Below, piece after piece: positions 132 through 14,781 of a stretch of 36,710 nucleotides of DNA (within the stretch, counting starts at the first letter, position 1; each line of letters opens with the position of its first letter). The notes beneath the pieces are model-generated. The model searched no databases. It was given only the letters and a program-made list of their open reading frames with translations, and had not been told where the DNA came from. Location: the IMG/VR virus record IMGVR_UViG_3300044712_001838, one strand, 5' to 3'. Source of the DNA: an uncultured virus (IMG/VR IMGVR_UViG_3300044712_001838) (Duplodnaviria > Heunggongvirae > Uroviricota > Caudoviricetes). The position numbers were made by a program, and so were the translations under genes.

Positions 132-143
132 GGGAGACAAGCT

Positions 144-470
144 ATGAAATGCCCCAAATGCGGTTGCGAAATTGACACCGAGGACGAGCACAAGTACGAG
201 CCGTCCAAGGACCAAATTGCGGACTTGCCGCCTTCGATCAAACAGCGATTCCTTCCCTACGACTCATGTACGCCTGCCGGAAAGCCGTACAAGGCTCCGC
301 CGCGCTTCCTTCAGTACTCAGACGACCATCTCAACGATTGGAACTTTACGCATCCGATCAAAGCCGAAGAGGACGGCTCCGTCTGGATGGTTCGGACATA
401 CAGCCCTACCTTCAACTCCAAGCGAAACTGCGGCGGCTACGACGTTATCTACTGCCGCAAAACCAAGTAA
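144..470 (+). CDS. hypothetical protein, N-terminal CxxC
   Basis: GGGAG RBS, ATG, 108 aa. Confidence 0.7.
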   Translation: MKCPKCGCEIDTEDEHKYEPSKDQIADLPPSIKQRFLPYDSCTPAGKPYKAPPRFLQYSDDHLNDWNFTHPIKAEEDGSVWMVRTYSPTFNSKRNCGGYDVIYCRKTK

Positions 471-485
471 GTGTCAAAAACGCCG

Positions 486-510
486 TTAGGACTCTGTTAG
501 GAGCAGGCGA
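486..510 (+). promoter_or_regulatory. 25-bp element copy 1
   Basis: TTAGGactctgTTAGGAGCAGGCGA; ATG 7 nt downstream (518). Confidence 0.85.
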
Positions 511-517
511 AGAAACC

Positions 518-724
518 ATGAACAGAAACGCGAACCCTCAACTGCTGAATCTCTTGCGCATGGGTTGCAAGGTTGAATTCCCTACCGGAGCATGGCTTCG
601 GGGAGACAAGGGCTACATCAAAGTCGGCAGCGAGCAACGCGGAGAACTTGGTGCTTGGTCTCTTGACCGCGAGGGGCTTCGCAACGCCATGTCCGACAAG
701 GACTTGTGGGCAGGTAACGATTGA
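518..724 (+). CDS. hypothetical protein (possibly leaderless)
   Basis: ATG at fixed offset from element; 68 aa. Confidence 0.7.
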   Translation: MNRNANPQLLNLLRMGCKVEFPTGAWLRGDKGYIKVGSEQRGELGAWSLDREGLRNAMSDKDLWAGND

Positions 725-731
725 GGAAGCC

Positions 732-932
732 ATGAAAAACCCGAATTGCGACAACATCCATTGCACCAAAGCCAACGGGGAAGTCCGCTTGCTGCCGACC
801 GGAGGCGACGGCAATATGATCGTCTGCCGTTCCTGTTACGAGCACGAAATGGCGTTCCGCCGCTCGTTCAGCAAGAGAGGGGTTAAACCCGATCTCCCGA
901 GTTGGGAGTCGCTCAAAGTCTACGAAGGGTAA
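732..932 (+). CDS. small Cys-rich hypothetical protein
   Basis: GAGG RBS; NPNCDNIHC…CRSC. Confidence 0.7.
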   Translation: MKNPNCDNIHCTKANGEVRLLPTGGDGNMIVCRSCYEHEMAFRRSFSKRGVKPDLPSWESLKVYEG

Positions 933-946
933 CAGTGCAACACTTA

Positions 947-971
947 TTAGGCTTCCGTTAGGAGCAGACGA
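947..971 (+). promoter_or_regulatory. 25-bp element copy 2
   Basis: TTAGGcttccgTTAGGAGCAGACGA; ATG 7 nt downstream (979). Confidence 0.85.
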
Positions 972-978
972 GATAAAC

Positions 979-1359
979 ATGATCAAGGTTCAATACTCGC
1001 TGGCAGACCTGTCGTCTGCTGGACCGCAGATTGAGAATGCATGCTTGAAGTCGGGCATGAGTATTGAAGAGGTCCCTGGCGGTTTGATTGCCCTACCAGG
1101 GAAAGGAACGAGTCAGTTTCCGCTGGTGCAAGGGGAGAGATGGGTCAATGTGTCAACTTCCATCGAATCCTACCTCTTCCTTGCCCGCTACTTGGCAATC
1201 ATGTCCGTTCTCGACGTCGCCTGCAAGCTTGGCGTCCTTGAGGACATCCTTGACGAAGGGGGGTTCTGGCGAAAAAGGGATCTGGACGCGCTGGTCGCTT
1301 TCAAAGAGACCTTGCAAAGTGTTCCAGATCCGCGAGAAACACGCCCGTTCATGTCGTAG
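979..1359 (+). CDS. hypothetical protein
   Basis: 126-aa ORF directly after element. Confidence 0.7.
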   Translation: MIKVQYSLADLSSAGPQIENACLKSGMSIEEVPGGLIALPGKGTSQFPLVQGERWVNVSTSIESYLFLARYLAIMSVLDVACKLGVLEDILDEGGFWRKRDLDALVAFKETLQSVPDPRETRPFMS

Positions 1360-1405
1360 AAGTTGTGCCGGAAAAGAAAATCCACGAAAAAGCACGTTTT
1401 CCGGC

Positions 1406-1434
1406 TTGACATTGTTTGTGTCGTATGGTAATGT
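1406..1434 (+). promoter_or_regulatory. sigma70-like promoter
   Basis: TTGACA-N17-TAATGT with TG extension, upstream of the 1508 gene. Confidence 0.65.
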
Positions 1435-1507
1435 GCAAGTGTTGCAGTTGGGAAAACAAACGAGCCTTTTGGCTCATAACGCCGCCTAGAGCGGAGGGAG
1501 AAAAGCA

Positions 1508-2326
1508 ATGAACGGAAGCAGCGAACAGAACAACGCGACCGAAGTCGCCAGCAACCCCGCGCCGGAAGCGACCGCCGCGCAGACCGAAACCACTCAGACC
1601 GCGACGACCGCGCCCTCGGGCAAGGTGACGCATAGCCAGATCGCCAGCAAGCTCGGCATCGACCGCTCGATTGTCACCCGCGTCCTGAACGGCAAGAGCA
1701 ACAGCCCCAAGAAAGAACTGATCCTCGCGACCGCCGCCGAAATGGGCTACGTCGCCCCCATCGCCAGCGAGCAGGCGACCGCCAGCCAGCCCGAAGCGGC
1801 TCCCGAAGTCGCCGCGCAGACGGAAAACGCCGTCCCCGAAAACGCCGTCGCGGCTGACACCGCCCCCGAAGCGTCGACCGAAGTCGCCGCCCCGAAGGCG
1901 AAGCCCAAGAGCAAGGGCAAGAAGACCGCCAAGAAGGCGAAAGCCAAGAAGTTCCCGCACGCCGCCCCGCGTATGATGGTCAACGCCGACATTCTGGCGA
2001 AGATCGAAGCGCATCCCGCCGATCTCCGCGAGAAGCTCAACGAGGCGCGGCAGGAAGAAGTCCAGACGCGCGGCTCCGGCGACGTTGACGACGCGACGGC
2101 TCGCTTGCTCTACAAGCTGGTCCATGACGACCGCATCAAGCCGGAAGCCAAGCTGGCGTACCGCGAAATGGAACCCATCTTCCATCTCAAGCGCAACAAC
2201 GGCATGTGCGCCTACCGCATCGTCGGCAAGATCGAAGCCGAACTGAAGCGCAAGGCTCGCCAGAAAGCCGCCGAAGCCCGCGCCGAAGCCAAGAAGGTCG
2301 AAGCTCCCGAAACGGTTAACGCCTAA
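1508..2326 (+). CDS. LacI-type HTH DNA-binding protein with Ala/Glu/Pro linker and Lys-rich segment
   Basis: VTHSQIASKLGIDRSIVTRVLNG…ILATAAEMGY resembles the LacI N-terminal HTH; GGAGGGAG RBS; own promoter and terminator. Confidence 0.75.
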   Translation: MNGSSEQNNATEVASNPAPEATAAQTETTQTATTAPSGKVTHSQIASKLGIDRSIVTRVLNGKSNSPKKELILATAAEMGYVAPIASEQATASQPEAAPEVAAQTENAVPENAVAADTAPEASTEVAAPKAKPKSKGKKTAKKAKAKKFPHAAPRMMVNADILAKIEAHPADLREKLNEARQEEVQTRGSGDVDDATARLLYKLVHDDRIKPEAKLAYREMEPIFHLKRNNGMCAYRIVGKIEAELKRKARQKAAEARAEAKKVEAPETVNA

Positions 2327-2364
2327 AAACGCCGACCGGAACAACGACCAATCCGGAAAAGCAG

Positions 2365-2390
2365 GGGTCGCCTTCGGGCGACCCTTTTTT
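2365..2390 (+). terminator. rho-independent terminator
   Basis: GGGTCGCC-TTCG-GGCGACCC followed by T6. Confidence 0.9.
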
Positions 2391-2407
2391 GTTGCCCTTC
2401 GAGACCA

Positions 2408-2507
2408 GGCGGATCTCCACGGGGCAGCCCTGAAGGGCACGGGGAATGTCCAGTGTCACTTCAGCATGACACAGTCGAGTGAGCTGCCCCGCCCGGTTGA
2501 CTCCGCC
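2408..2507. ncRNA. candidate structured RNA or DNA element
   Basis: Nested stems GGCGGA/TCCGCC, CGGGGCAGC/GCTGCCCCG, GTGTCA/TGACAC in an intergenic gap. Confidence 0.35.
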
Positions 2508-2518
2508 AACGTCCGGCG

Positions 2519-2543
2519 TTAGGCTTCCATTAGGAGCAGGCGG
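2519..2543 (+). promoter_or_regulatory. 25-bp element copy 3
   Basis: TTAGGcttccaTTAGGAGCAGGCGG. Confidence 0.85.
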
Positions 2544-2568
2544 GCAAGGTGGGATAAGGGAGATGACC

Positions 2569-2874
2569 ATGAATTTGAAAGAACATGAAGTTCCGCATAG
2601 TCGGGAAACATTCGGAGGCGACGAACGAGCGATCAATCGTCACAGCCAGAGACAGTACAAAGTCCCAGGGCACGATCCGATCATCTACATTGACCGGAAC
2701 AACAGCGGATGCCCGCCCTTCTACAAATTGTTTTACTTCAATCCAGGCGCTACCCTTGCAACAACCATTCAGGTCGACGGAAAGGAATATTGGGGCGACG
2801 GGTTAAGCTGGCCCAAAGCCATCGCCAAGGCAAGTGAAACGATCAGTCGCCTGCTCGAAACGGGCGGGGAATGA
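2569..2874 (+). CDS. hypothetical protein
   Basis: AAGGGAG RBS; start 2569 (or 2563). Confidence 0.7.
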   Translation: MNLKEHEVPHSRETFGGDERAINRHSQRQYKVPGHDPIIYIDRNNSGCPPFYKLFYFNPGATLATTIQVDGKEYWGDGLSWPKAIAKASETISRLLETGGE

Positions 2875-2876
2875 CA

Positions 2877-2901
2877 TTAGGTCTCCGTTAGGAGCAGGCG
2901 A
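2877..2901 (+). promoter_or_regulatory. 25-bp element copy 4
   Basis: TTAGGtctccgTTAGGAGCAGGCGA; ATG 7 nt downstream (2909). Confidence 0.85.
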
Positions 2902-2908
2902 CACGATC

Positions 2909-3130
2909 ATGGAAAAGAAAATTCGTATCTACGGCAAGCCGCTTTTGATCAAAAGGGTCAATGGTCAATTCTCTTGGAGGCTCGCCCTGTTCCAAGGGAA
3001 GGCGACCTTCTCCAACCATATCCTGCAAAGCGCAGAAGATGTCGTCCTCGAATCCTACGAGGAAGCAAACAAAGACATGAAGGTAATGGCGAAACAGTTG
3101 AAAATCATCCTGCCTCGGCGGAAGCGTTAG
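2909..3130 (+). CDS. hypothetical protein
   Basis: Starts at fixed offset; stop TAG supplied by the next element. Confidence 0.7.
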   Translation: MEKKIRIYGKPLLIKRVNGQFSWRLALFQGKATFSNHILQSAEDVVLESYEEANKDMKVMAKQLKIILPRRKR

Positions 3131-3151
3131 GCTCCCGTTAGGAGCAGGCGA
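3127..3151 (+). promoter_or_regulatory. 25-bp element copy 5
   Basis: TTAGGctcccgTTAGGAGCAGGCGA. Confidence 0.85.
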
Positions 3152-3173
3152 CTAAATCAAAGGAGAGGACCCC

Positions 3174-3722
3174 ATGGCAAACAGTTGCGGTCGGAAGCTT
3201 GAAAATGGGACAAAGGTCGTCCTGGCAAAAGATGACGATCTGCGTCGCGAACTCCACGGCAAGACGTTCATCTGTAACGGGACGGGCTTCGGCTCAGATC
3301 CGGAGAATCGCGGGAATGCCGTCTTCGGCAAGTTCGAGGACGGAACCGCAGGGCGCATCGAAGGTTACATGATCGACCTCCCCGCGACCATGGAGAAGTA
3401 CGGTAAGGAAAACGGTTGGCAGTACACGCAGGCAGACTACGACCACTTGCTCCATCGCTGCGCCCGCGTCTACAAACAGTTCAAGGTCAAGCCCTTCCAG
3501 CCCAAGCGGATGCCCAAAAGCCGCTACCGCTACGAAATCTGGCGCGACATGCCGAAGGGCGAAGCCGTCGCCGTCGAGTGTCTCGGTACGTTCCCGACCG
3601 ACAACGCGGCCCGCAAGGTCTGCGACAAGGTCGTCGAACTCACAGGCGTCCAGCATTACACCGCTGAGTACGACGCCACGGACGAGATCGAAGAACTGCT
3701 CAAGAAGGCGATCCTCTCATGA
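3174..3722 (+). CDS. hypothetical protein
   Basis: AGGAGAGG RBS; 182 aa. Confidence 0.75.
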   Translation: MANSCGRKLENGTKVVLAKDDDLRRELHGKTFICNGTGFGSDPENRGNAVFGKFEDGTAGRIEGYMIDLPATMEKYGKENGWQYTQADYDHLLHRCARVYKQFKVKPFQPKRMPKSRYRYEIWRDMPKGEAVAVECLGTFPTDNAARKVCDKVVELTGVQHYTAEYDATDEIEELLKKAILS

Positions 3723-3961
3723 AAGCAGCCCATCGACGAGTCTTGAAAGCATTGAAGAGCGGGGCGTCTGTTTGGGCGCCCTACTGCGCAAGACAGGCGT
3801 ACATCGCCTACGCCAAGGAACTCCGCTCCGACTACGTTCGAGTGTCAACGCTTAACGAGATGCTCGAACTCGGACTGATCGAGTACGAAGAGGGACGGCA
3901 TGAGACCCATCCGGACTCCCATTACATCCTGCCAAAGGAAAAGACCAATGAGCCTAGCTGA
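3719..3961 (+). CDS. hypothetical protein (possibly winged-helix-like)
   Basis: ATGA overlap with upstream gene; STLNEMLELGLIEY. Confidence 0.65.
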   Translation: MKAAHRRVLKALKSGASVWAPYCARQAYIAYAKELRSDYVRVSTLNEMLELGLIEYEEGRHETHPDSHYILPKEKTNEPS

Positions 3962-4436
3962 CTGCGTCACCCTCTTCCACGTCTCTACCGCCGCCAAGCG
4001 CGCGAAGATCCTCAAAGAGGGAATCCAGCCCAACAAGCGACCCTGCTGGACCAACGTCTTCGGTCGCCCGCTCAGGGAGAAAGACACCGTCTACGCTTTC
4101 GCCAGCTTCGACGACGCCGCCAGATGGGCTTTCAAACATCAGTTCGACGCGCAAAAACCCTGCGACATCTTCGCCTTCCAATCCGACCCCTGCTTCTGGA
4201 AGGATGACACCCATCCCGAAGCCAGCCTCGGCAAGGGCAAATGGCTCAAGAGCAAAAACGCCGTCCCGGCTCGCGCGATCAAGCATTGTCTGCCCTTCGA
4301 TCCCAACAAGTTCGGTCCACTGCTGGTCCAAACGTTGGGAGACCCCAAAGAGATCCTTCCTGACGGCAGAGTCATCGCCGTCGATAAGACCAAAATCCTG
4401 ATCATCGGCTTCTCGCCGGATTGGGTCAACTGTTAG
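3948..4436 (+). CDS. putative ADP-ribosyltransferase-fold (Tpt1/KptA-like) protein
   Basis: LFHVS…ILKEGIQP, VYAF and VPARAI motifs; AAGGA RBS. Confidence 0.5.
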   Translation: MSLADCVTLFHVSTAAKRAKILKEGIQPNKRPCWTNVFGRPLREKDTVYAFASFDDAARWAFKHQFDAQKPCDIFAFQSDPCFWKDDTHPEASLGKGKWLKSKNAVPARAIKHCLPFDPNKFGPLLVQTLGDPKEILPDGRVIAVDKTKILIIGFSPDWVNC

Positions 4437-4457
4437 GCTTCCGTTAGGAGCAGGCGA
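4433..4457 (+). promoter_or_regulatory. 25-bp element copy 6
   Basis: TTAGGcttccgTTAGGAGCAGGCGA. Confidence 0.85.
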
Positions 4458-4476
4458 CGGGGTAAAGGAGAACCGC

Positions 4477-4746
4477 ATGTCCAAACTCAAATGCCCTCAT
4501 TGCAAAGGTCGCGGTAAACTGACCATTACCTCCGTCCATATCAGCGCGAAGGGACGATCAGCCCCCGAAAAGACGGAGATCAACTGCGTTACCTGCGACG
4601 GGAAGAAAACGGTCTCCAAAGAACAGAAAGCCGCCTGGAACCGCTACCTCGCGTCCTGGTGCAAATGCAAAAAGCCTGGTACCGCCCTGTCCGACGGACG
4701 CGACTGGTACTGCTCCAAGTGCCGCAAACTGGTCCAGCAGGGTTAG
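4477..4746 (+). CDS. DnaJ-type CxxCxGxG zinc-finger protein
   Basis: CPHCKGRG, CVTCDGKK, further CxC and CxxC; AGGAG RBS. Confidence 0.7.
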   Translation: MSKLKCPHCKGRGKLTITSVHISAKGRSAPEKTEINCVTCDGKKTVSKEQKAAWNRYLASWCKCKKPGTALSDGRDWYCSKCRKLVQQG

Positions 4747-4767
4747 GCTTCTGCTAGGAGCAGGCGA
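4743..4767 (+). promoter_or_regulatory. 25-bp element copy 7
   Basis: TTAGGcttctgCTAGGAGCAGGCGA. Confidence 0.85.
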
Positions 4768-4787
4768 CTGAGCTAAGGAGATCGACC

Positions 4788-4973
4788 ATGCCTCTATACC
4801 GAGTCTTCCTTTCCGATTTCCCGACTAGCTACTTTTCAATCGGAGCGAAAAACAAGCACAAGGCAGTCCAACACGCCCGCGCTGAAGCTTCAATGGGACG
4901 CCGGAAACGGACGACTGTCCTGAAAGTCGTTCGCATACTCAAAGACGGAAGCGAAAAGAACCTTAAAGAATAG
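4788..4973 (+). CDS. hypothetical protein
   Basis: AAGGAG RBS; 61 aa. Confidence 0.7.
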   Translation: MPLYRVFLSDFPTSYFSIGAKNKHKAVQHARAEASMGRRKRTTVLKVVRILKDGSEKNLKE

Positions 4974-4982
4974 GAGAACCGC

Positions 4983-5132
4983 ATGTCCCGCGAAGTGACA
5001 CTCAAACTCGACAAGTTCGCGGCGGGGAAGCAGAAAAAGGACCCCCAAGGCGCCATTCAACCACAAGCCCTACTGAACGGAAAGCACACCAAATCCTTCA
5101 ACATCGGAAAACGCCGACAGTCATTTAGGTAA
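4983..5132 (+). CDS. small hypothetical protein (49 aa, not in ORF track)
   Basis: AGGAG RBS; MSREVTLKLDK…; stop lies inside the next element. Confidence 0.55.
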   Translation: MSREVTLKLDKFAAGKQKKDPQGAIQPQALLNGKHTKSFNIGKRRQSFR

Positions 5133-5149
5133 CCGTTAGGAGCAGGCGA
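5125..5149 (+). promoter_or_regulatory. 25-bp element copy 8
   Basis: TTAGGtaaccgTTAGGAGCAGGCGA; ATG 7 nt downstream (5157). Confidence 0.85.
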
Positions 5150-5156
5150 CCAGATC

Positions 5157-5540
5157 ATGGAAAAGACTAACTTCGACGATCGTGCCTATATCGTTTGCGC
5201 CCTTTGGTCCACCCTCGACGGCTCAACCCCGAGCGGCGGATATCCCCTGGACAAGAACTACAGCCCCGCTGATATCGATCAGGCGACGCTTACGCAAATG
5301 GTTGCCGATTGCAAGGACTTCCAAGATTCGAACACCGAAGCCCTCGTCGAAGCTTGCGCCCAGGGCGGAGATCCGGAACGAAACGGTCATGACTTCTGGC
5401 TGACCCGCAACCGCCATGGCGTCGGCTTTTGGGATCGCGGGTACCAAGGCGAATTCGTCCGCCACCTCGTCGATAACGCGCACGCCTACGGCAGCTACGA
5501 TCTCTACGTTGGAGACGATAAGAAGATCCATGGAAACTGA
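5157..5540 (+). CDS. conserved phage hypothetical protein (GHDFWLTRNxHGxGFWDR family)
   Basis: Motif GHDFWLTRNRHGVGFWDRG recalled from phage proteins of unknown function. Confidence 0.8.
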   Translation: MEKTNFDDRAYIVCALWSTLDGSTPSGGYPLDKNYSPADIDQATLTQMVADCKDFQDSNTEALVEACAQGGDPERNGHDFWLTRNRHGVGFWDRGYQGEFVRHLVDNAHAYGSYDLYVGDDKKIHGN

Positions 5541-5553
5541 TCAGGGAGACACT

Positions 5554-6096
5554 ATGACAGCCACTGAGACGTCCTCGAAGATCATCCAATTGGTCTCTCG
5601 TCCCGAGCAGGCGACGCTTGTTCTGGACCCCGAGGACCTGATTCTCGCCTACAGAGCCGGACGCGAGTCCATGAACAGCTTCCTCTCCGGCAAAGGCGAC
5701 CTTCCCTGCCAGTTCTCACACCCGCTTCAAAAGCAGGAATGGCTCCGGGCTCGGCGCGACGTCCTCGACCAAGTACTTTGGAAGGCGACGGATGATGGCT
5801 GCCAGCACGCGTTGTTTGGAGATCACCCCGGTGTTAAGTACTCCGGCAAACTGAAGGAAGCCTGGGACAAGGGCGTCCGGCGCGGAGAAAGTGTCATCGC
5901 CAAGACCGAACCCAAGGAACTCGCTTGGATGCGCGGCTGGCATGCTGGTGCCTACTCCGAAGGTCTGCCCGATAACCCCTACGAAGAAACGCCTCTTGCA
6001 ATTCACTGGCTCAAGGGGTATGATGCCGGATTGAGTACAATCGAAGCCCTGGCTTCACGCGAGAATGTCGCCAGAAAGGTCAGGGAAGCCTGTTAG
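5554..6096 (+). CDS. protein with tandem RMF/CrpP-like repeats
   Basis: AYRAG…CQF…EWLRARRD and AWMRGWHAG…NPY…HWLKGYDAG; GGGAG RBS. Confidence 0.6.
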   Translation: MTATETSSKIIQLVSRPEQATLVLDPEDLILAYRAGRESMNSFLSGKGDLPCQFSHPLQKQEWLRARRDVLDQVLWKATDDGCQHALFGDHPGVKYSGKLKEAWDKGVRRGESVIAKTEPKELAWMRGWHAGAYSEGLPDNPYEETPLAIHWLKGYDAGLSTIEALASRENVARKVREAC

Positions 6097-6117
6097 GCTT
6101 TCTTTAGGAGCAGGCGA
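6093..6117 (+). promoter_or_regulatory. 25-bp element copy 9
   Basis: TTAGGctttctTTAGGAGCAGGCGA. Confidence 0.85.
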
Positions 6118-6157
6118 TCCGGTCGGGAGAAAGACCGCAGCCAAAAGGAACCTCAGA

Positions 6158-6631
6158 ATGACTCGAACTGACATTCTCCCATTACTGGCGACAATAGCTC
6201 CGCCTTCAACGATGGATGAGGCAATTTCCCGCATTGCTGAGTATACCAACGCAATGCAAATCAGGGACGAACTCACCGCGCTGGAGACTTGGCTGACAGA
6301 GCAACGAGACACAGCAAAGAATGACCCCGCTTACGAGCCTGTCGTCTTCCGAGTCTACGAGGAAGTCATCGAACAAGTCGCCATCTTGAAGGGAGAGCGC
6401 CAAACTCGCGGGCTGGTCGGCATCACGGGCATGAAGTTTGACTGCATCGAACAGTTTACCGCCGCCATGCAGGAATGCGGCTGGAACATCTCTGCGCGAG
6501 AATGGAAGAAGGACGACGCGCAAATCCTGTATCAGGTTGACGCAATCGGGAAAAACGCCGATAAGAACTGGATGCTTCTCCGCGCAATCCTCGGAAGCTG
6601 GCTCGAAGTCCTCATCGTCAAGGATCTGTAA
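6158..6631 (+). CDS. hypothetical protein
   Basis: AAGGA RBS; start at MTRTDIL. Confidence 0.7.
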   Translation: MTRTDILPLLATIAPPSTMDEAISRIAEYTNAMQIRDELTALETWLTEQRDTAKNDPAYEPVVFRVYEEVIEQVAILKGERQTRGLVGITGMKFDCIEQFTAAMQECGWNISAREWKKDDAQILYQVDAIGKNADKNWMLLRAILGSWLEVLIVKDL

Positions 6632-6652
6632 AACGCCGACAAGGAGAAACCC

Positions 6653-8000: not shown

Positions 8001-8110
8001 GGCTCCGCCTTCCTATTTTCGTAACTGTGTCATGAAACTATGACACTGGTAACTTGGTCACTTGCAGCTCACGACCAGCCTGGTGATCGATCGCTGGATC
8101 AATGTTCATC

Positions 8111-8491
8111 TTAATTGCCGGACTTCTCGCAGAAGACCTTCCAATCGAAGTCCTTGGTATCAACGGAGATACCGAAACGCCCCATCTCAGACTGCAACGC
8201 GCCATCTGCCCGGACCACATCCTCTTGGTCGACTGGATCGACATGGATCAAGCCGGCGCTGAACAACCGATTCGGCTCAGGAACCTCGAACGCCAGGGCT
8301 TCGATGCCGACAACCGTCTTGTTAGAGTCAAAGAAGAACTGGACGCGAGGTGCAAATGGGGAGAATTGGTCCTTCAGAGCAGCCAGGATCTTCTCCGTTG
8401 GCGTCTCCGGACCGTAATCGACGCCCGCAACGGACGCCAAATACTCTGTAGGGACTGTCGTGCAGCGGTACATCCGAGCAGTGATCTTCAT
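8111..8491 (-). CDS. hypothetical protein
   Basis: AGGAGG RBS; 126 aa. Confidence 0.7.
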   Translation of the reverse strand: MKITARMYRCTTVPTEYLASVAGVDYGPETPTEKILAALKDQFSPFAPRVQFFFDSNKTVVGIEALAFEVPEPNRLFSAGLIHVDPVDQEDVVRADGALQSEMGRFGISVDTKDFDWKVFCEKSGN

Positions 8492-8554
8492 CGTCGCCTC
8501 CTGGTGATGTTCATCAACCAGGAGCGATTATACAACGTCCGGTGTCATGTCTAG

Positions 8555-8588
8555 AAACAGCGAAGGCTGTCTCGAAGAGGCAGCCTTG
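8555..8588 (-). terminator. hairpin, possible terminator
   Basis: AAGGCTG-CTC/GAG-CAGCCTT stem with a short T tail on -. Confidence 0.45.
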
Positions 8589-8628
8589 CTAGGCGGGATT
8601 GAACGGGGATGTCGCCCTAGGCCTCGCC

Positions 8629-8657
8629 TGAATACCGCGCGAAGCAGGTTATGTCAA
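8629..8657 (-). promoter_or_regulatory. sigma70-like promoter
   Basis: TTGACA-N17-TATTCA. Confidence 0.5.
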
Positions 8658-8726
8658 GGGCGGTCGGCAAACTTCACTCTACATCAACAGTGAACTTTGT
8701 CAATATAAAAAGATTAGAAATATCTC

Positions 8727-8770
8727 AGAAAACAACAATCCCCTCAGCAGCGGTTGCCAAGGGGATTGTC
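8727..8770 (-). terminator. probable terminator
   Basis: ACAATCCCCT/AGGGGATTGT stem followed on - by TGTTTT. Confidence 0.55.
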
Positions 8771-9051
8771 TTCAGCCGTTGTTCAGGCCGCCGGTCAGTA
8801 ATAACAATTAGCTCACGAACGCGAAGTGACGCATTTGACTTTCCCCCATCCTGCGGTTAACAGGCTCCGTCGCCTGATTTGAGGTTAGTGCCCAGTCTGC
8901 ATAAGGGGACAATTTCTCCCCTTTTATGCATTCTCGCTCCATGCAGGCGGCAGGTACGCCCGACATTTCGACATCGCAAGCATTCGCCCCACGGTACGGC
9001 AGATTGTTACAAACCCATACTACCACGTCTTCACTTAAAGTCAAGCGGAAT

Positions 9052-9378
9052 CTACCGCAAGTTGACATTGCGGCAGTTGCCCGCGTACGTATGTCCGGTC
9101 GGCGCCACCCGCCGAGCAAAGCGAGCATCGTTCAACGCATCTTCCGGACTGGAGCCGACGCCTTCGACCCGCAAATGGAAGCTCTCCCATCGCCGGACGG
9201 TCGGTCCCAACGGCGAGTCCGTACTGAGCAGATAGAACTCAGCAGGCTCTCCAGGCGGGTTGCTGACGACCTTCGCGCTGTCGTAGCGAAGCATGTCCAT
9301 AATGTCATGGACCGCATTCGCCTTGTCTTCCAGCGCGTCCTTTTTGATCAAGAAGTACCAAACCTTCGGTTTCGCCAC
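9052..9378 (-). CDS. phage hypothetical protein (DMLRYD…PTxxRWxSF)
   Basis: GGGAGGG RBS, GTG start. Confidence 0.7.
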   Translation of the reverse strand: MAKPKVWYFLIKKDALEDKANAVHDIMDMLRYDSAKVVSNPPGEPAEFYLLSTDSPLGPTVRRWESFHLRVEGVGSSPEDALNDARFARRVAPTGHTYAGNCRNVNLR

Positions 9379-9403
9379 GGTCCTGTCCCTCCCTTTGATC
9401 CTG

Positions 9404-9428
9404 TCGCCTGCTCCTAATGGAGTCCTAA
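9404..9428 (-). promoter_or_regulatory. 25-bp element copy 10
   Basis: TTAGGactccaTTAGGAGCAGGCGA on -. Confidence 0.85.
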
Positions 9429-9829
9429 GTCAAGCTTGCGTAAATCATTTCTTTGAGTTCTTCTTCAAGCCTGTTACGCCCCGCCGTCTTGTGGACAATG
9501 GCAGAAACCGTAGCATCGCTAAGAAGAGCGTCAAAAACCTCTTGCGAACGCTCAGTAGCATCCGCTAAACAACTCTCGCAAACAAGTACCTTGTTCCAAG
9601 CAGGCGACTTGGCAATCTTTTCAACAGCAGTTTGGACAGTCTTCCGAGCGTCGCGCCAGCCCATTTCGTAAACAGCTTGACCAGACTCCGTCCAGCGTGT
9701 CATTCCGAACTGCTTTAAGCCTTTCGGTGAGATGCCGTAGTAAGCACTTATCGGCAACCCCGCCCGATAGTCTTTCGCCCCCTTCTCTTTTAAGGCGACA
9801 ACTCTGGAACTCTCTAGTTTCGCGTTCAT
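9425..9829 (-). CDS. hypothetical protein, N-terminal RMF/CrpP-like segment
   Basis: GAKDYRAGLP…YEMGWRDA; ATG 7 nt after element. Confidence 0.65.
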   Translation of the reverse strand: MNAKLESSRVVALKEKGAKDYRAGLPISAYYGISPKGLKQFGMTRWTESGQAVYEMGWRDARKTVQTAVEKIAKSPAWNKVLVCESCLADATERSQEVFDALLSDATVSAIVHKTAGRNRLEEELKEMIYASLT

Positions 9830-9836
9830 GATTCTC

Positions 9837-9861
9837 TCGCCTGCTCCTAACGCAACCCTAA
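9837..9861 (-). promoter_or_regulatory. 25-bp element copy 11
   Basis: TTAGGgttgcgTTAGGAGCAGGCGA on -. Confidence 0.85.
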
Positions 9862-10106
9862 ACCTGCTCCAGCTTGACGACCCCATCAGAGCCAATGCTC
9901 TTGACGCTGACCGGAACATTGCCGTCGCGCCGGACGAGGACGACCTCGGTAGCGACTGATTTGAACCCCGTCATCACAACATGAGACAGCAACATCCGAT
10001 CCTCAACCGTAACATCCAGCAACATGAAGTTGCCTGCTTGAAAAGACAGTGTCTTCTTGGCAGGATGCTTGATTCTGATCTGAATCGCCGCTTGAATGCG
10101 CCTCAT
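9858..10106 (-). CDS. hypothetical protein
   Basis: 82 aa; stop supplied by element. Confidence 0.65.
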   Translation of the reverse strand: MRRIQAAIQIRIKHPAKKTLSFQAGNFMLLDVTVEDRMLLSHVVMTGFKSVATEVVLVRRDGNVPVSVKSIGSDGVVKLEQV

Positions 10107-10107
10107 T

Positions 10108-10377
10108 TTAACCCCGCTTCCTGTACCAGTAAAACTGCCCGTCCTTCACACTCTCCGCAACGCAAAGCCCGTTCTCCAACGCCAGATGGCGACATTTGTA
10201 GCCAGGATTCTTCGGACAATCGGCAAAAAAGCTGCCGACAACCTTGACCACCGTCCCGCCTAACTGCGGCGGAAGCCGAACATCGTCCGGAACATCCCCG
10301 CCAAACAGCAACGCGCACTCTTCCTCGTTGACCGGAAGCCCGCCTGGTACTTTGTTGAAGCGCATCGTATCGCCCAT
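10108..10377 (-). CDS. hypothetical protein
   Basis: GGAG RBS; 89 aa. Confidence 0.65.
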   Translation of the reverse strand: MGDTMRFNKVPGGLPVNEEECALLFGGDVPDDVRLPPQLGGTVVKVVGSFFADCPKNPGYKCRHLALENGLCVAESVKDGQFYWYRKRG

Positions 10378-10379
10378 TA

Positions 10380-10548
10380 CTAATCTCCGTGATCAGCATC
10401 ATTCTTGATATTGATTGCCGTCTGCTCGGCGGCTTTGTCGATGGCAAGCCCTAACAGGATCTCGACAGCATCACGGCTGAAACTTTCTTTCTTTCTTAGC
10501 CGGAAGAACCTTTTCGATGATTTGTTCTTTTTGCCAGTCGCTTATCAT
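10380..10548 (-). pseudogene. small gene apparently frameshifted in an (AAAG)n run
   Basis: Removing one AAAG unit at 10483-10497 gives a 54-aa ORF that fills the gap. Confidence 0.45.
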
Positions 10549-10751
10549 TTCAGCCCCTTGGGGATCTCCCCCGTCCAGATGGCGACCGTTTCCCCATCGC
10601 CTACGAACACGAAGTACCCCTTCTCCGAAATGGCATTGACCGTATATTTGCCTGTCTGCTGCAAAAGCCCGACTGGCTTCGTCTTTCGGTACGGGTACGG
10701 ATTCCCGCACATCGTAAAGACCGACCCTGTCTCAAGCTCGCCAAAGTTCAT
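10545..10751 (-). CDS. hypothetical protein
   Basis: 68 aa; ATGA-coupled. Confidence 0.65.
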   Translation of the reverse strand: MNFGELETGSVFTMCGNPYPYRKTKPVGLLQQTGKYTVNAISEKGYFVFVGDGETVAIWTGEIPKGLK

Positions 10752-10918
10752 TTCTTTCCCCCAATGCGGGGAGTCAGATGAACAATCTCTCCGGTGTCTC
10801 GCTCGATCTCAAGCTCCCGCGCTGCATTCTCGCAAATATGCGCCATGCCCGCGTTCCCTTGCCGCCGCTCGCGCGCCGCCGCTCCCCGCCAACATTTGAT
10901 CGCTTCATTAAAGCTCAT
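10748..10918 (-). CDS. small hypothetical protein (56 aa, not in ORF track)
   Basis: MSFNEAIKCW…; ATGA overlaps at both ends. Confidence 0.6.
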   Translation of the reverse strand: MSFNEAIKCWRGAAARERRQGNAGMAHICENAARELEIERDTGEIVHLTPRIGGKK

Positions 10919-11094
10919 GAGAATCCCTTGGATTTACGCTGTCGCGGAACTAACCCCTTCAACCCGCTACATTCTGACTCTCTGAACCCACCAATTCGGC
11001 GGCGACAAGATTTGCAAGTAACCTTGAGACTCGCGCTAATGGGTAGCAGAGTCTCTACCGTCTTCTTGCAAATAAAACAAGTCGCCTGCCCCAT
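10915..11094 (-). CDS. small zinc-ribbon protein
   Basis: CFIC…CKSC. Confidence 0.55.
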   Translation of the reverse strand: MGQATCFICKKTVETLLPISASLKVTCKSCRRRIGGFRESECSGLKGLVPRQRKSKGFS

Positions 11095-11095
11095 A

Positions 11096-11347
11096 CTAGA
11101 CCCCATCGAAAACAACAATATTGCCAGTCCGCTTGACAATGGCAACCGCATTCTCAGCAGGCGACCAGACGGCGACTGAATCGTTGATATTCCCGACCGC
11201 CGCCAAAAGATCGGCGTCTGCTTTGTTCAGGCGACGCTCAATCGCGTCGTAGTTCCGAACGGTCCCAAGGACCTTCCCGCGAACCTTTTTGAACTCATGG
11301 ATGTAGCGAGTCGCCGCCTTGACGCAGTCTGCCTTGTTGTTTTTCAT
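11096..11347 (-). CDS. hypothetical protein
   Basis: ATG 7 nt after element. Confidence 0.7.
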   Translation of the reverse strand: MKNNKADCVKAATRYIHEFKKVRGKVLGTVRNYDAIERRLNKADADLLAAVGNINDSVAVWSPAENAVAIVKRTGNIVVFDGV

Positions 11348-11354
11348 GATAGCG

Positions 11355-11379
11355 TCGCCTGCTCCTAATGAAAGCCTAA
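11355..11379 (-). promoter_or_regulatory. 25-bp element copy 12
   Basis: TTAGGctttcaTTAGGAGCAGGCGA on -. Confidence 0.85.
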
Positions 11380-11392
11380 ATCCAGAAGGCAC

Positions 11393-12034
11393 TCAGTCCC
11401 TGTACTTGACCTTGAACCAGCCAGGATTCTCTTTCGCCCGATTGAAGTCGCCCCGCAACGTCGATCCCGCCAGCTTCATCACCAGCCCCTCGCTGATGAC
11501 CCCATCGCTCCCCCGCTGACCCGCCTCGTACTCCCGCTCCAACCGCTCAAACAACTCAACAAACCCGCTCCGAACGCTCTTGCAGACGACAATGCGCGGC
11601 GTCTTGACTTTCGCCTTCGCAAAGTGCAACTCCAAGAGTGTAACCAAGTTAGCGAGACGCTGCTCGTACGGAATGTCGCCCTGCCATTGACCCTGATAGT
11701 ACAAAAGGTCGAATACCTCGAACCAATGGCGACCGCCTGTAAATTCAGTGTCCCGATTGCCCATCCATTCCATGTCGAACGCAGTGCCATCGGGAATGTT
11801 GAGAGTGTCAAGCTCCGCCACCAAATCCGCCGGCGGCTGCGACTTCGCCTCAACTCCCGTCTCGTACTTGGAATGAAACGTCCAGATCCCCTGCTTGTAC
11901 CCCGGTCGCCTCCAACCGTTCCGCTTGATCTGCCCAATCCAAGTCCCAGGCTCCTTGTCCGCCTGCTCAAGCAGTTCGCGGAAGTGCCTTATCGGATTGT
12001 CCGGACAACGAAATGGCATCGGTTTCGTCAACAT
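11393..12034 (-). CDS. ATP-dependent ligase-family nucleotidyltransferase, adenylation domain only
   Basis: Motifs I KRNGWR, III FDMEW, IIIa FEVFDLL, IV EGLVMK, V WFKVK; protein ends right after motif V; start 12034 or 12055. Confidence 0.8.
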   Translation of the reverse strand: MLTKPMPFRCPDNPIRHFRELLEQADKEPGTWIGQIKRNGWRRPGYKQGIWTFHSKYETGVEAKSQPPADLVAELDTLNIPDGTAFDMEWMGNRDTEFTGGRHWFEVFDLLYYQGQWQGDIPYEQRLANLVTLLELHFAKAKVKTPRIVVCKSVRSGFVELFERLEREYEAGQRGSDGVISEGLVMKLAGSTLRGDFNRAKENPGWFKVKYRD

Positions 12035-12252
12035 CAGTTGCTCCCCGCATGGCATTCCCCATGCCGCGCCACGACCGCATTGGAAACTGCCCCTGCCAAT
12101 ACAATCTCCCCGCCAGCCAAACTCGCCGCCCCGCCCGCAACCGCCAGTAACAGGCGACGGTCGGCTTCTAGGGCGGCAGCTTGCGGTGTCATGCCAGCGG
12201 CTGCCAGTTTTTCGGCAATGATGCGGGCAAGTTCGGTTCTTTGAAACTTCAT
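12034..12252 (-). CDS. Ala-rich hypothetical protein
   Basis: GAGGAG RBS. Confidence 0.6.
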   Translation of the reverse strand: MKFQRTELARIIAEKLAAAGMTPQAAALEADRRLLLAVAGGAASLAGGEIVLAGAVSNAVVARHGECHAGSN

Positions 12253-12389
12253 CGGTACTCCTCGCCGCGCTCAGACCGGATAAAGGCTTCTGTCCGGATA
12301 GCCGCCGTCGATTGCTGCAACCCCTGTTGGGAGGTCAACCAAGCAATCCAACGGCGATACAAGTCCGGATTCCGCACTCTGATAAACAT
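12249..12389 (-). CDS. small hypothetical protein (46 aa)
   Basis: GAGG RBS; ATGA-coupled to the next gene. Confidence 0.5.
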   Translation of the reverse strand: MFIRVRNPDLYRRWIAWLTSQQGLQQSTAAIRTEAFIRSERGEEYR

Positions 12390-12400
12390 GGGTGCCTCGA

Positions 12401-12442
12401 AATGAAATGGGGCGGGAACAAGCCCCTTGTTGTCCCCGCCCC
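12401..12442 (-). terminator. probable terminator
   Basis: GGGGCGGG-AACAAG/CTTGTT-CCCGCCCC stem followed on - by ATTTCATTT. Confidence 0.6.
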
Positions 12443-12461
12443 CAACGCTCAGGAAGGGCGC

Positions 12462-13292
12462 TTACTTTTTGGAGCGCGCCGTTTCCTCTTGACGAACCTT
12501 CAGAGTGCCGTTGCCAATGGTCAGCAACCCCTCGTTCTTCGCCTTCTTGACCTTCTGCTCGACAATCGGGTCCAGCGAATAGTCGCTCGCCAGACACGCC
12601 GCCTTACCGTCTGCCGTCTTGCGCAGGACGATCATCGGGACGTAGTCGAAGAACGTCGCGAAGTTACAGCCGCCGTCCTCGGGCATCGCCGTCCCCGCCA
12701 GCATGCGCTGCAACTGCGCCAAGCGCGCCGGAGAGTTGGAAACGTCCGACTTGAGTGTCAGCACGTTCTCGACGTTGAAATACTTGTTCCAGCCGTCCAT
12801 GCCGAAGATTTCTTGCAGGTTCTTCTTGAACCAGGGCAAGGTCCGCTCTTTGGCAGGGTCCAGCTTGCCAACGTCGATGGCGAAGTACGTAAACGTCAGC
12901 CCGCCAGCGCAGACCGACATGTAGAAGACCTTGTCCGCGCGGCAGAGCTTCAGACGCTCGGCTTCAAGGACCGGACGAATCTGACCGCCCGCCAAATCCT
13001 TGTTCGCCTTCGCCGCCTTCTCTTTGGTGTCTTCCTCGACGTACTTGACAATCGCCCCCTTGATGCCATCGGGAGTCGTAATCTCCGGCGTGTCGCCCTT
13101 CTTGACGGGCTTCGGCGCCGCCTGCATCCCCATCGACGCCAGCATATCATCCGCAGTCTGCTGCGCGGGCGGGCAAGGCGGAACAACCTTGTCCGAGACC
13201 GGAACGTTCGGGATTGTCTCCGCCACTGTCTGCGTCGGGGTCGGAGCAACCGCTGTCCCGCCTTCCGTCGCCTGTTTGGTCCGCTTTGCCAT
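12462..13292 (-). CDS. hypothetical protein, probably highly expressed
   Basis: AAGGAGAG RBS; biased codons; own element and terminator. Confidence 0.8.
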   Translation of the reverse strand: MAKRTKQATEGGTAVAPTPTQTVAETIPNVPVSDKVVPPCPPAQQTADDMLASMGMQAAPKPVKKGDTPEITTPDGIKGAIVKYVEEDTKEKAAKANKDLAGGQIRPVLEAERLKLCRADKVFYMSVCAGGLTFTYFAIDVGKLDPAKERTLPWFKKNLQEIFGMDGWNKYFNVENVLTLKSDVSNSPARLAQLQRMLAGTAMPEDGGCNFATFFDYVPMIVLRKTADGKAACLASDYSLDPIVEQKVKKAKNEGLLTIGNGTLKVRQEETARSKK

Positions 13293-13338
13293 TTGCCTTG
13301 CTCTCCTTAATCTGAGTCCCTTGTCCTGCACAAACTGC

Positions 13339-13363
13339 TCGCCTGCTCCTAATGAAAACCTAA
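13339..13363 (-). promoter_or_regulatory. 25-bp element copy 13
   Basis: TTAGGttttcaTTAGGAGCAGGCGA on -. Confidence 0.85.
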
Positions 13364-13770
13364 ATCAGCGGCAACCGCCCGCCGTTCGTCTCCTGTTCAA
13401 TGACCGGAACCATCTTCGCGCAGAGCTTCACCAACGACTCGTTGCGCAAATCAAAGTTCCCCTCTTTCGCCTTCCCCGCCCACATCTTGACCAACTCGAC
13501 CAGCAGGCGACCAAACCCCTGCTGAAGCGTCCGATGAGTGTAATGAACCGCCTCGGTACAGAAACCCTTGATCACCTCGTCCTCATTGGAAAGGGTATTC
13601 AGCGCGTCCATTATGCCCCGCGCCATGCGCTTTCCCGCTTCCGCCCCGCCAATCCGTGGATAGTCGGCGGCTAGGGCGGCTTTGGCAACCTCTTTCGGGT
13701 CCCCCTTGCCGTCCCGAATGTCCTGCAACGCCGCCCGTAGCTTGCTTTCCATCGCTTCCGTATCGTACAT
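13360..13770 (-). CDS. phage hypothetical protein (HRTLQQ…DxRNE)
   Basis: GGAGG RBS; 136 aa. Confidence 0.75.
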   Translation of the reverse strand: MYDTEAMESKLRAALQDIRDGKGDPKEVAKAALAADYPRIGGAEAGKRMARGIMDALNTLSNEDEVIKGFCTEAVHYTHRTLQQGFGRLLVELVKMWAGKAKEGNFDLRNESLVKLCAKMVPVIEQETNGGRLPLI

Positions 13771-13820
13771 ACCGCCCTCCGCAACCCGCTGGCGATCCTG
13801 TCGGATTGAAATCCGTCAGG

Positions 13821-13848
13821 ATTCTAACCCGCTTACCAGAAATGTCAA
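13821..13848 (-). promoter_or_regulatory. sigma70-like promoter
   Basis: TTGACA-N16-TAGAAT. Confidence 0.6.
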
Positions 13849-14156
13849 GCGGTTTTCTTCGCCGCCTGCTCAACCAATTCCCAAATCTTCGACATCTGCT
13901 GATGGTCGAATGTCCCATGGCAGAGGAAAACAAGCTGGTTCAAGACCATGACCGTCACCGGATGGAAACGAACCCAAGCCGTATTATGGTCCTTCATCTT
14001 GAGCAGTTCCTCGTTCATCCGTTGCCAGGAATTCACCAGGGCAACCAAGTTCGGCGCCGACTGCATGTTCAGGACGTCCTGTGCCATCTTCTTGGGGATG
14101 TCGTCCACAGTATAGAAGTAGTCGCCCAAACTAAGCTCGATCTTCTTTTCAGCCAT
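13845..14156 (-). CDS. hypothetical protein
   Basis: GGAGG RBS; 103 aa. Confidence 0.75.
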   Translation of the reverse strand: MAEKKIELSLGDYFYTVDDIPKKMAQDVLNMQSAPNLVALVNSWQRMNEELLKMKDHNTAWVRFHPVTVMVLNQLVFLCHGTFDHQQMSKIWELVEQAAKKTA

Positions 14157-14177
14157 CTCTATTACCCTCCAGTCAGG

Positions 14178-14202
14178 TCGCCTGCTCCTAATGCAACCCT
14201 AA
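14178..14202 (-). promoter_or_regulatory. 25-bp element copy 14
   Basis: TTAGGgttgcaTTAGGAGCAGGCGA on -. Confidence 0.85.
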
Positions 14203-14495
14203 CCCATTATGTCTTTCACTAACTGAGCAGCCAACGCCGCCAGTTCCGCCTCGTCTTGTTCCAAAACAACCACGTCCGGCATCGAAATGATCGTCGGCGC
14301 TGAAGGGTCGGCTGGCTCGGGTTCCGGAATCTCTTCTCCGGCTTCCTGTAACGCTGCCAACGCCCGCGCGCTCTCTTCCTGTTCCCTCAACTGGTTCTCA
14401 GTCAAGGTCGCCGCCCAACGCGATTTGTCGTACCCGCAGTCAGTTTCTGCGTCGCCTTCTTGTTCACCCAAGTCCTTTGCCCACTCAGGGATCAT
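14199..14495 (-). CDS. acidic hypothetical protein
   Basis: GGAGG RBS before MIPEWAK; very Glu/Asp-rich. Confidence 0.7.
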   Translation of the reverse strand: MIPEWAKDLGEQEGDAETDCGYDKSRWAATLTENQLREQEESARALAALQEAGEEIPEPEPADPSAPTIISMPDVVVLEQDEAELAALAAQLVKDIMG

Positions 14496-14584
14496 GCCAA
14501 CCTCCATGTCAGTTTGACAAAAATCTGTCCAGCACTTCTACACATCAACTTGCGGTGTGCCGTTTCATCGGCTACCATTCCCAT
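14492..14584 (-). CDS. 30-aa peptide
   Basis: ATG 7 nt after element copy 15; ATGA-coupled to the next gene. Confidence 0.4.
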   Translation of the reverse strand: MGMVADETAHRKLMCRSAGQIFVKLTWRLA

Positions 14585-14591
14585 GAGGCAA

Positions 14592-14616
14592 GCGGCTGCT
14601 CCTAACGGAAACCTAA
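14592..14616 (-). promoter_or_regulatory. 25-bp element copy 15 (variant)
   Basis: TTAGGtttccgTTAGGAGCAGCCGC on -. Confidence 0.75.
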
Positions 14617-14781
14617 TCCGACAGAGCCGCCGCCTGCTGCCAGTGTCTTCTTTTTGACCGCAAGCCGTCGCCTGCGGTCCGGTGTCATGCTCCGCCCTGC
14701 TTGTAATGACAAGCTCAGGCAACGGTGCCAAGCCCGGCAGGCGACTTTTTGCCGACTTGGGACCATTTCGCGGAGATCGCC

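Follow-up and report, generated by a model that had tools for sequence, protein, structure and literature searches.

The uncultured virus record IMGVR_UViG_3300044712_001838 of IMG/VR comprises 36,710 nucleotides (hereafter the window, meaning this whole analysed stretch of 36.7 kb), and we investigated a 25-bp element, TTAGG-N6-TTAGGAGCAGGCGA, that occurs in it 15 times. With the first T of TTAGG numbered as base 1, the arrangement of the copies suggests that the element is probably the core of a phage-specific promoter, with the transcription start at base 33. The element forms a class distinct from the canonical sigma-70-type promoters of the same phage. We present below the conservation of the copies, their fixed distance to start codons and ribosome sites, and a comparison with the canonical promoters, which served as an internal control.

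Number, position and orientation of the element copies

We scanned the window for the element, tolerating up to three mismatches and taking the expectation from 100 shuffles. The scan returned 15 matches against 0.01 expected, and these were the same 15 copies that a preliminary description of this DNA had listed. Ten copies were exact, four carried one mismatch, and the copy at 14592 carried two. Nine copies lay on the plus strand (486-6117) and six on the minus strand (9404-14616), and no additional element was found in 15-36.7 kb, even with looser scans for parts of the motif, which added just one partial match, on the opposite strand at 2847. Genes were called by us from codon usage (83 proteins), and by these independent calls all 15 elements stood at a gene boundary and pointed to the next gene, as had been described. 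Together with terminators, the elements delimit 15 units, each with an element at its head and one to five genes behind it. These units hold about 28-30 genes in the window, fewer than the regulon of about 35 small genes proposed earlier. The genes behind the elements are mutually unrelated, with no paralogy among them, and the conservation of the element therefore does not come from gene duplication.

This DNA was present in just two metagenome runs, both of rhizosphere DNA and probably its source, and no RNA run was listed for it; we aligned the contigs of these two runs to the window. One contig extends about 11.7 kb past the left end of the window and carries two more plus-oriented elements, at about 8.4 kb and about 11.4 kb to the left. 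The former is identical to the copy at 3127 and the latter to the copy at 2877, over 41 and 39 nt, including 13-16 nt of downstream flank. At least three elements lie outside the window, one of them on a separate 5.9-kb contig of similar depth, with more on loose contig ends. Among the contigs of these runs no variants were found in window positions 1-16500, a result that is uninformative on constraint.

Anatomy of the element

The 15 elements were aligned with their flanks, and bases were counted position by position. The 25 bases 5' of the element showed no conservation; the conserved block begins abruptly at base 1 and ends at base 25. TTAGG at bases 1-5 never varies, TTAGGAGCAGGCGA at bases 12-25 varies hardly or not at all, and bases 7-10 are biased to pyrimidines (T, T, C, C). 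Bases 26-29 are unconserved and are followed by a weak A-T-C-A at bases 30-33, where base 32 is a pyrimidine in 14 of the 15 copies and base 33 a purine in every copy (A in 11, G in 4). The two TTAGG words stand in direct orientation, 11 bp or one helical turn apart; 29 of the 30 half-sites read TTAGG, and the remaining one also carries G as its fourth base. Summed over its positions, the element holds about 38 bits of information, whereas about 13 bits would suffice to specify about 18 sites in at least 98.7 kb of genome. The bases 5' of the internal AGGAG are as invariant as AGGAG itself.

The elements form no hairpin in RNA or DNA (fold z about 0 against shuffles, alifold -1.6 kcal/mol), and a structured RNA or a miniature inverted-repeat transposable element (MITE) is therefore unlikely. 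The hallmarks of MITEs and of repetitive extragenic palindromic sequences, namely terminal inverted repeats, a stable hairpin and occurrence in either orientation, were not seen in the elements, and neither an Rfam family nor a tRNA was found in the window. A coding reading was considered and rejected: although the element's third frame lacks stop codons and matches the phase of the ATG, two of six such frames have no start codon, and the other copies stand in other phases. One observation is unique to the copy at 2877: a reverse-complement copy of GAGCAGGCGA lies at 2846-2855 (minus strand), 31 nt 5' of this element and within the preceding gene, and pairs as an inverted repeat with the element's 3' end.

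Two classes of translation start behind the element

In seven copies (486, 947, 2877, 5125, 9837, 11355 and 14592) an ATG begins at base 33, the eighth base after the element, and is always preceded by C. The flanks thus agree with the earlier claim of a C-ATG exactly 7 nt past the element in these copies. Six of the seven open frames of 68-134 codons, which the gene caller had chosen independently. For the element at 486..510 (plus), the predicted transcription start is the A of the ATG at 518, which opens an open reading frame (ORF) at 518-724 encoding 68 amino acids (aa). The element at 947..971 (plus, one mismatch) leads to ATG 979 and ORF 979-1359 (126 aa), and that at 2877..2901 (plus) to ATG 2909 and ORF 2909-3130 (73 aa), with the upstream gene stopping 2 nt ahead. 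Behind the element at 5125..5149 (plus), ATG 5157 opens a gene whose 127-aa product (5157-5537) matches phrog_1915, with homologues in 422 phage records. At 979 and 5157 the base-33 ATG is the earliest possible start in its frame, and the start at 5157 is further backed by the PHROG alignment and by phage homologues whose alignments begin at residue 1. On the minus strand, the element at 9837..9861 leads to ATG 9829 and ORF 9829-9425 (134 aa), and that at 11355..11379 to ATG 11347 and ORF 11347-11096 (83 aa), where GTG 11392 is an alternative in-frame start. The element at 14592..14616 (minus), with its two mismatches the most divergent copy, heads the leftward block. Its C-ATG at 14584 has the right spacing, as in the six other copies, but the frame that it opens is only 30 codons long and overlaps with the next gene, which starts at 14507.

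We scored Shine-Dalgarno sequences for all 83 called genes. A sequence scoring -4.5 kcal/mol or better was present in 58 of them, mostly 3-10 nt from the start. For the genes of the ATG class, the nearest such sequence was the element's own AGGAG, 13-14 nt from the ATG, which confirmed the earlier statement that this class has no separate Shine-Dalgarno sequence and that the internal AGGAG is 14 nt off.

The remaining eight copies have a purine-rich stretch from base 33 onward; in six of them this is the Shine-Dalgarno sequence or leads straight into it, and the start codon comes 12-39 nt past base 33. Seven of these eight keep a pyrimidine-purine step at the same offset, as had been noted. 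On the plus strand, the element at 2519..2543 (one mismatch) has a T-G step at 2550/2551, GGGAG and ATG 2569 (or 2563), and that at 3127..3151 has a C-A step at 3158/3159, AAAGGAG and ATG 3174. The element at 4433..4457, followed by AAGGAG and ATG 4477, has A-A at bases 32/33 and is the sole copy in the window without a pyrimidine at base 32. The element at 4743..4767, whose one mismatch makes the second half-site CTAGG, has a T-A step, AAGGAG and ATG 4788, and that at 6093..6117 has a C-G step at 6124/6125 and a probable ATG at 6158 (6212 according to the gene caller). On the minus strand, a C-A step, a predicted start at 9396, AAAGGGAGG and GTG 9378 follow the element at 9404..9428. The element at 13339..13363 has a longer leader, with a T-G step, a predicted start at 13331, AAGGAG and ATG 13292, and that at 14178..14202 has a T-G step, a predicted start at 14170, GGAGGG and ATG 14156.

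Comparison with canonical promoters of the same window

Canonical promoters were sought with the pattern TTGAC[ACT]-N16/17-TA[TGC]N[AGT]T, with the expectation taken from 300 simulated sequences. This pattern scan found nine sites against 0.54 expected, at 35663, 24833, 24213, 19848, 17908, 16038, 13848, 9044 and 8703, all on the minus strand, which is the strand of the genes there. In five of the nine, the TGA of the upstream gene forms bases 2-4 of the -35 hexamer. In eight of the 15 elements (3127, 4433, 4743, 6093, 9404, 9837, 13339 and 14178), the TAG of the upstream gene forms bases 2-4 of the first TTAGG; the second TAG is used by none, and in six copies no upstream gene ends inside the element. 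In at least one canonical promoter, that at 19848, the -10 hexamer is followed by 7 nt and AAGGAG, which matches the GGCGA, 7 nt and AAAGGAG of short-leader elements. TTAGG begins where a -35 hexamer begins, and the last base of the element falls where a -10 hexamer ends. The stop-codon placement and the 7-nt geometry common to elements and canonical promoters indicate that the element occupies a promoter's place.

The element has no TTGACA- and TATAAT-like hexamers 16-18 bp apart. It does carry what looks like the discriminator arrangement of sigma-70-type promoters, an unconserved stretch of about 6-8 nt followed by a pyrimidine-purine start. Within the element-bearing blocks, only one sigma-70-like site (13848) lies 5' of a gene that has no element. 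The canonical promoter at 16038 faces a gene-free stretch, with no gene behind it for 1.5 kb, and may drive an unannotated RNA. A leaderless start from the canonical promoter at 35663 was ruled out by a GGAGG and a second ATG downstream.

Proposed initiation and the reader of the element

In the mechanism that we propose, TTAGG at -32 to -28 would take the role of a -35 element, and TTAGGAGCAGGCGA would occupy -21 to -8, with its 3' end where a -10 hexamer ends. Four unconstrained bases and a weak (A)T-C-A initiator would follow, and transcription would start at the purine 8 nt past the element. In six or seven units this purine would be the A of the ATG, giving a leaderless mRNA, and in the other eight it would begin a leader of 12-39 nt that usually opens with a Shine-Dalgarno sequence. 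The reader would be a multisubunit RNA polymerase with a specificity factor, because a promoter block, an unconserved gap and a pyrimidine-purine start are the initiation layout of such an enzyme. A phage sigma factor, an activator on the tandem TTAGG combined with a sigma factor reading GCAGGCGA(C), or part of a phage multisubunit enzyme could fill this role, its gene presumably lying outside the window. Since canonical promoters coexist in the window, the host enzyme may act first on these, with a switch of specificity afterwards. The spacing of TTAGG-N16-GCGA(C) may resemble that of extracytoplasmic function (ECF)-type promoters, and that of TAGG-N15-GGCGA may resemble sigma-28-type promoters.

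The preliminary description had proposed that the element spans -32 to -8 of a promoter unlike sigma-70, read by a phage-encoded RNA polymerase, sigma factor or activator. Conservation, the comparison with canonical promoters, the missing Shine-Dalgarno sequences and the lack of structure and paralogy all fit this proposal, but the phage-encoded reader that it included was not found in the window. A search for sigma factor and RNA polymerase genes, which had been recommended, covered Pfam (83 proteins at E ≤ 0.01 and the 48 larger ones at E ≤ 0.5), PHROGs (83 proteins) and NCBIfam (65 proteins), and yielded no sigma factor, RNA polymerase or regulator gene among the 83 window proteins. Structure comparison of two candidate proteins gave low-confidence models and template modelling (TM) scores below 0.5, with nothing usable.

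The absence of a reader gene from the window is one of several points that weigh against the promoter reading. For a region that has to melt, the putative -10 sequence GGCGA has an unusually high G+C content, and the invariant middle, TTAGGAGCAG, finds no place in a sigma promoter of two blocks. The distance from TTAGG to the predicted start is about 3 bp shorter than that from a -35 hexamer (the element spans 25 bp, the canonical promoters 28 bp). An in-frame start exists 5' of the element in four of the six longer leaderless candidates (266, 2834, 9919 and 11392); translation from such a start would read through the single open frame of the element. The ATG behind 14592 opens 30 codons only, and the base-33 purines of the short-leader class may partly reflect the purine-rich ribosome site next to them. 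Two copies on loose contig ends break the pyrimidine-purine step at bases 32/33, one having no step and one having it a base early, which weighs mildly against a rigid start site. The 3' end of the element also belongs to a scattered word, GMAGGCGAC, which has 49 further sites in coding and non-coding DNA on both strands, none with promoter context.

Two phage systems that use multisubunit enzymes were compared with the element. The early promoters of the virion RNA polymerase of phiKZ-related jumbo phages, given for AR9 as AAATATATATTAT-(6N)-G+1, were found by over-representation alone (PMC5312081). As presented in that source, the likeness lies in dozens of near-identical copies before small early genes and in the sequence of conserved block, gap (6 nt in theirs, 7 nt in the element) and purine start. 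The layout of an extended block, about 6 unconserved nt and a conserved start base can be recognised in the element as well. By the same account their promoters are AT-rich and about 13 bp long, whereas the element is GC-rich, 25 bp long and a tandem repeat, and their phages are independent of host-type promoters, whereas the window has nine sigma-70-like ones. No split beta/beta' genes were found in the window, and the pairing of AT-rich promoters with split subunits that marks AR9 and phiKZ was thus not seen in the window. Promoters of phage sigma factors (phiEco32 gp36, phage 7-11) are described as conserved, low-copy motifs that stand beside host-sigma promoters and define a later gene class (PMC4331800). 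To judge from that description, the element is similar in standing beside ordinary promoters and in having an end-to-start gap that suits a multisubunit enzyme. It differs in its continuous 14 bp plus a second block, which is beyond usual sigma reading, and no sigma gene was found in the window. Intergenic viral repeats have been read as promoters from sequence before: in halovirus HF2, repeats of 29 and 58 bp were guessed in this way and confirmed with reporters (PMC8707807). The reporter confirmation is HF2's own, and the HF2 repeats, as reported there, are archaeal, AT-rich, of TATA type and conserved across a virus genus, whereas no relatives were found here.

Alternative readings of the element

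A single-subunit RNA polymerase of T7 type is an unlikely reader. Such an enzyme would read the 25 bp and start inside them, for example at the GG of TTA|GGAG or GCA|GGCGA, so that leaders would measure at least 12-18 nt and no mRNA would be leaderless. The 38 bits far exceed the 13 bits required, and such an information excess is typical of T7-type promoters; SP6 and K11 promoters carry TTAGG near -15 to -11. The element also resembles T7 and SP6 promoters in its length (about 23-25 bp), its near-invariance and its service to a block of genes. In T7-type promoters, however, conservation extends without a break from about -17 past the start to about +6, and their enzymes start with G, whereas conservation of the element ends at base 25, 7 nt short of the likely start, and resumes only as the pyrimidine-purine step at 32/33, with A or G after the pyrimidine and no fixed GG. 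A start inside the element, of which we saw no sign, leaves unexplained the fixed 7-nt gap to the ATG in seven copies and the ribosome site that begins at bases 33-35 in most others. The canonical promoters of the window have the same geometry from promoter end to ribosome site, and no gene for such a polymerase was found in the 36.7 kb.

It is quite unlikely, in our view, that a DNA-binding regulator of the phage uses the element as a repeated operator, in the manner of a stoperator, and that the element is not itself a promoter. In Cluster A mycobacteriophages, stoperators are described as asymmetric, intergenic sites oriented with transcription, which block elongation when bound by the repressor (PMC9283540, PMC6550527). 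The element is likewise asymmetric, intergenic, present in many copies and always co-oriented, although these properties are also common to promoters and do not discriminate between the two. Stoperators are further bound by the immunity repressor of the phage and spread over early as well as late operons; no repressor was identified in the window, and the element has no copy in 15-36.7 kb. The tandem TTAGG words, 11 bp apart, would suit a head-to-tail dimer, and GMAGGCGAC is scattered as a binding site might be. An operator alone, however, predicts neither the ATG at base 33 in seven copies, nor the pyrimidine-purine step in 14 of 15, nor the adjoining ribosome site, nor the -35/-10 parallel with canonical promoters, and no further promoter could be recognised for the genes that follow the elements. 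As a specific binding site, we considered the CtrA box, TTAA-N7-TTAA, which is described in phages of Alphaproteobacteria (PMC9437464). Going by that report, its half-sites stand 11 bp apart in phage promoter regions, and the element can be written as TTAG-N7-TTAG. The candidate was rejected on the G at the fourth base of all 30 half-sites, the TTAGG in 29 of them, the asymmetry of the half-site and the nine more invariant bases that follow.

A signal acting in RNA or translation is very unlikely. It could be a processing site, a termination-reinitiation site with the stop in the first TTAGG and AGGAG in the second, or a start-associated sequence (SAS). In Cluster K mycobacteriophages the SAS, GGGATAGGAGCCC, is described as a 13-bp sequence in the position of a ribosome site, with AGGAG 3-7 bp from the start codon (PMC3203893). 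As far as that description goes, the element shares with it asymmetry, a single orientation, a place beside start codons of non-structural genes, a preference for ATG, an upstream stop inside the sequence and the word TAGGAG; the upstream gene stops at bases 2-4 in 8 of the 15 elements. The identification with the SAS was nevertheless rejected, for AGGAG lies 14 nt from the ATG in seven copies of the element and a separate ribosome site is present in the other eight. Six of the 15 elements have no upstream gene ending inside them, no RNA structure was found, and the bases 5' of AGGAG are equally invariant. Finally, a recombination or cassette boundary that shuffles small accessory genes, with promoter activity secondary (a role that has been suggested for promoter-stem-loop cassettes of T4-type phages), is highly improbable: unrelated ORFan genes do stand behind near-identical repeats, the two left-extension copies match window copies well into their flanks and the information content is far above recognition need, but no relatives were found that would show cassette gain or loss, there is no recombinase context or inverted repeat, and a cassette is compatible with promoter function instead of an alternative to it.

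A scattered 9-mer and an origin-like stretch

The word GMAGGCGAC, to which the 3' end of the element belongs, has 57 sites in the window against 0.86 expected, and eight of these are element ends. Its core, AGGCGAC, has 90 sites against 8.5 expected, 44 on one strand and 46 on the other. The core sites occur in all reading frames, sense and antisense, and also between genes, and codon usage therefore cannot account for them. Since GMAGGCGAC is scattered across the window, the conservation of bases 18-26 need not be due to a polymerase only, and part of the element's conservation may serve a second reader or function.

The densest zone of the 9-mer is 14.45-16.3 kb (14451-16307), with 14 sites in 1.9 kb, and it surrounds a gene-free, repeat-rich stretch of 740 bp at 15295-16035. 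This stretch lies at the cumulative GC skew minimum and has AT-rich patches. The sequence TTCGRGAAAACGCCGAC occurs four times, at 15340, 15386, 15491 and 16047; a TAGnAAAATTCTAAAGA-like word occurs four times at the stretch, one of them just 5' of it at 15033; and within it GTTGCGAGCGGTCGC occurs twice in tandem at a distance of 21 bp. From these features, 15295-16035 is a candidate replication origin or regulatory hub. Elsewhere, one site of the scattered word falls within the spacer of the canonical promoter at 17908, and small hairpins surround single copies at 9596-9612 and 25645-25662. The strong two-way terminator at 2363-2386 has a stem formed by an inverted pair of the word (GTCGCC/GGCGAC).

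The simplest idea for the 9-mer would be a phage DNA-binding protein with predicted sites at the origin-like region, across the genome and in the elements; such a protein would account for part of the element's excess information. A broader combination appears doubtful to us. In it, the element would be a GC-rich 25-bp tandem-repeat promoter of undescribed type whose GMAGGCGAC module also recurs about every 650 bp along the genome and clusters at the origin-like stretch. One protein would couple the transcription of middle genes, often leaderless, to replication or to recognising the DNA of the phage itself.

Relatives and novelty

Megablast of window positions 1-15000 against phage records found no DNA relatives, and the full motif had no match in viral contigs. 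The 14-mer alone gave single matches only, among the 80 of 120 loci listed, which is consistent with chance. Exact matches to the motif, one each in a metagenome contig and a genome contig, were set aside as unrelated by blastn and as fitting chance in number; the genome of the latter was not enriched in the 9-mer (171 vs 103 in the control). Four window proteins had no relatives in viral contigs, a 272-aa window protein, on record on a contig of 98,710 bases, matched only itself among 5.8 billion proteins, and a 312-aa one had no tblastn match in phage records. In the literature, the motif strings met only unrelated primers among the matches listed.

Phage-specific promoter families found by over-representation are a known kind; the sequence of this one was not met in print among the papers listed. 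The element is unusual in coming from an orphan phage, in being a GC-rich tandem repeat, and in its base-exact tie to start codons in nearly half of its copies. If the promoter reading is true, an uncultured soil phage would offer an orthogonal 38-bit promoter and a source of new polymerase or sigma specificity. One promoter class would then serve leaderless and short-leader mRNAs from a start site fixed to the base, a natural case for work on how bacteria establish leaderless translation. The comparison also suggests that such regulons may be readable from sequence alone if canonical promoters in the same genome serve as the yardstick. The word GMAGGCGAC, scattered over the window and overlapping the element's 3' end, may prove more unusual than the element itself.

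Genes and other features of the window

The window has a G+C content of 52-58%. Its small genes lie in strand blocks: plus from about 144 to 7465, minus from 7425 to 14507, one plus gene at about 14.75-15.3 kb, and minus from 16035 to the end. Strong terminators were found at 2363-2386, 12442-12409, 8770-8734 and 7392-7369. Matches in Pfam, PHROGs or NCBIfam were found for almost none of the 83 called proteins, and the window looks like part of a large uncultured phage, its accessory or early region. The gene at 16038-16565 (minus), which adjoins the origin-like stretch, encodes a P-loop kinase of the shikimate kinase family (Pfam SKI, E 1.6e-31); it scores under the NCBIfam equivalog cut-offs, and its substrate is therefore uncertain. 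A library match identified a DUF4419 protein at 30123-31187 (minus). Weak matches were obtained to a DnaJ-type zinc finger at 4477-4743, to a ligase-like protein at 11396-12055 (minus) and to a helix-turn-helix protein at 1508-2323. A C-terminal domain of about 40-55 residues (41-62% identity) is common to the products of 28763-29125, 35820-36467 and 36471-36641, all on the minus strand, and one of the three matches phrog_4927. The DNA of 35820-36467 and 36471-36641 is 84% identical over 74 nt.

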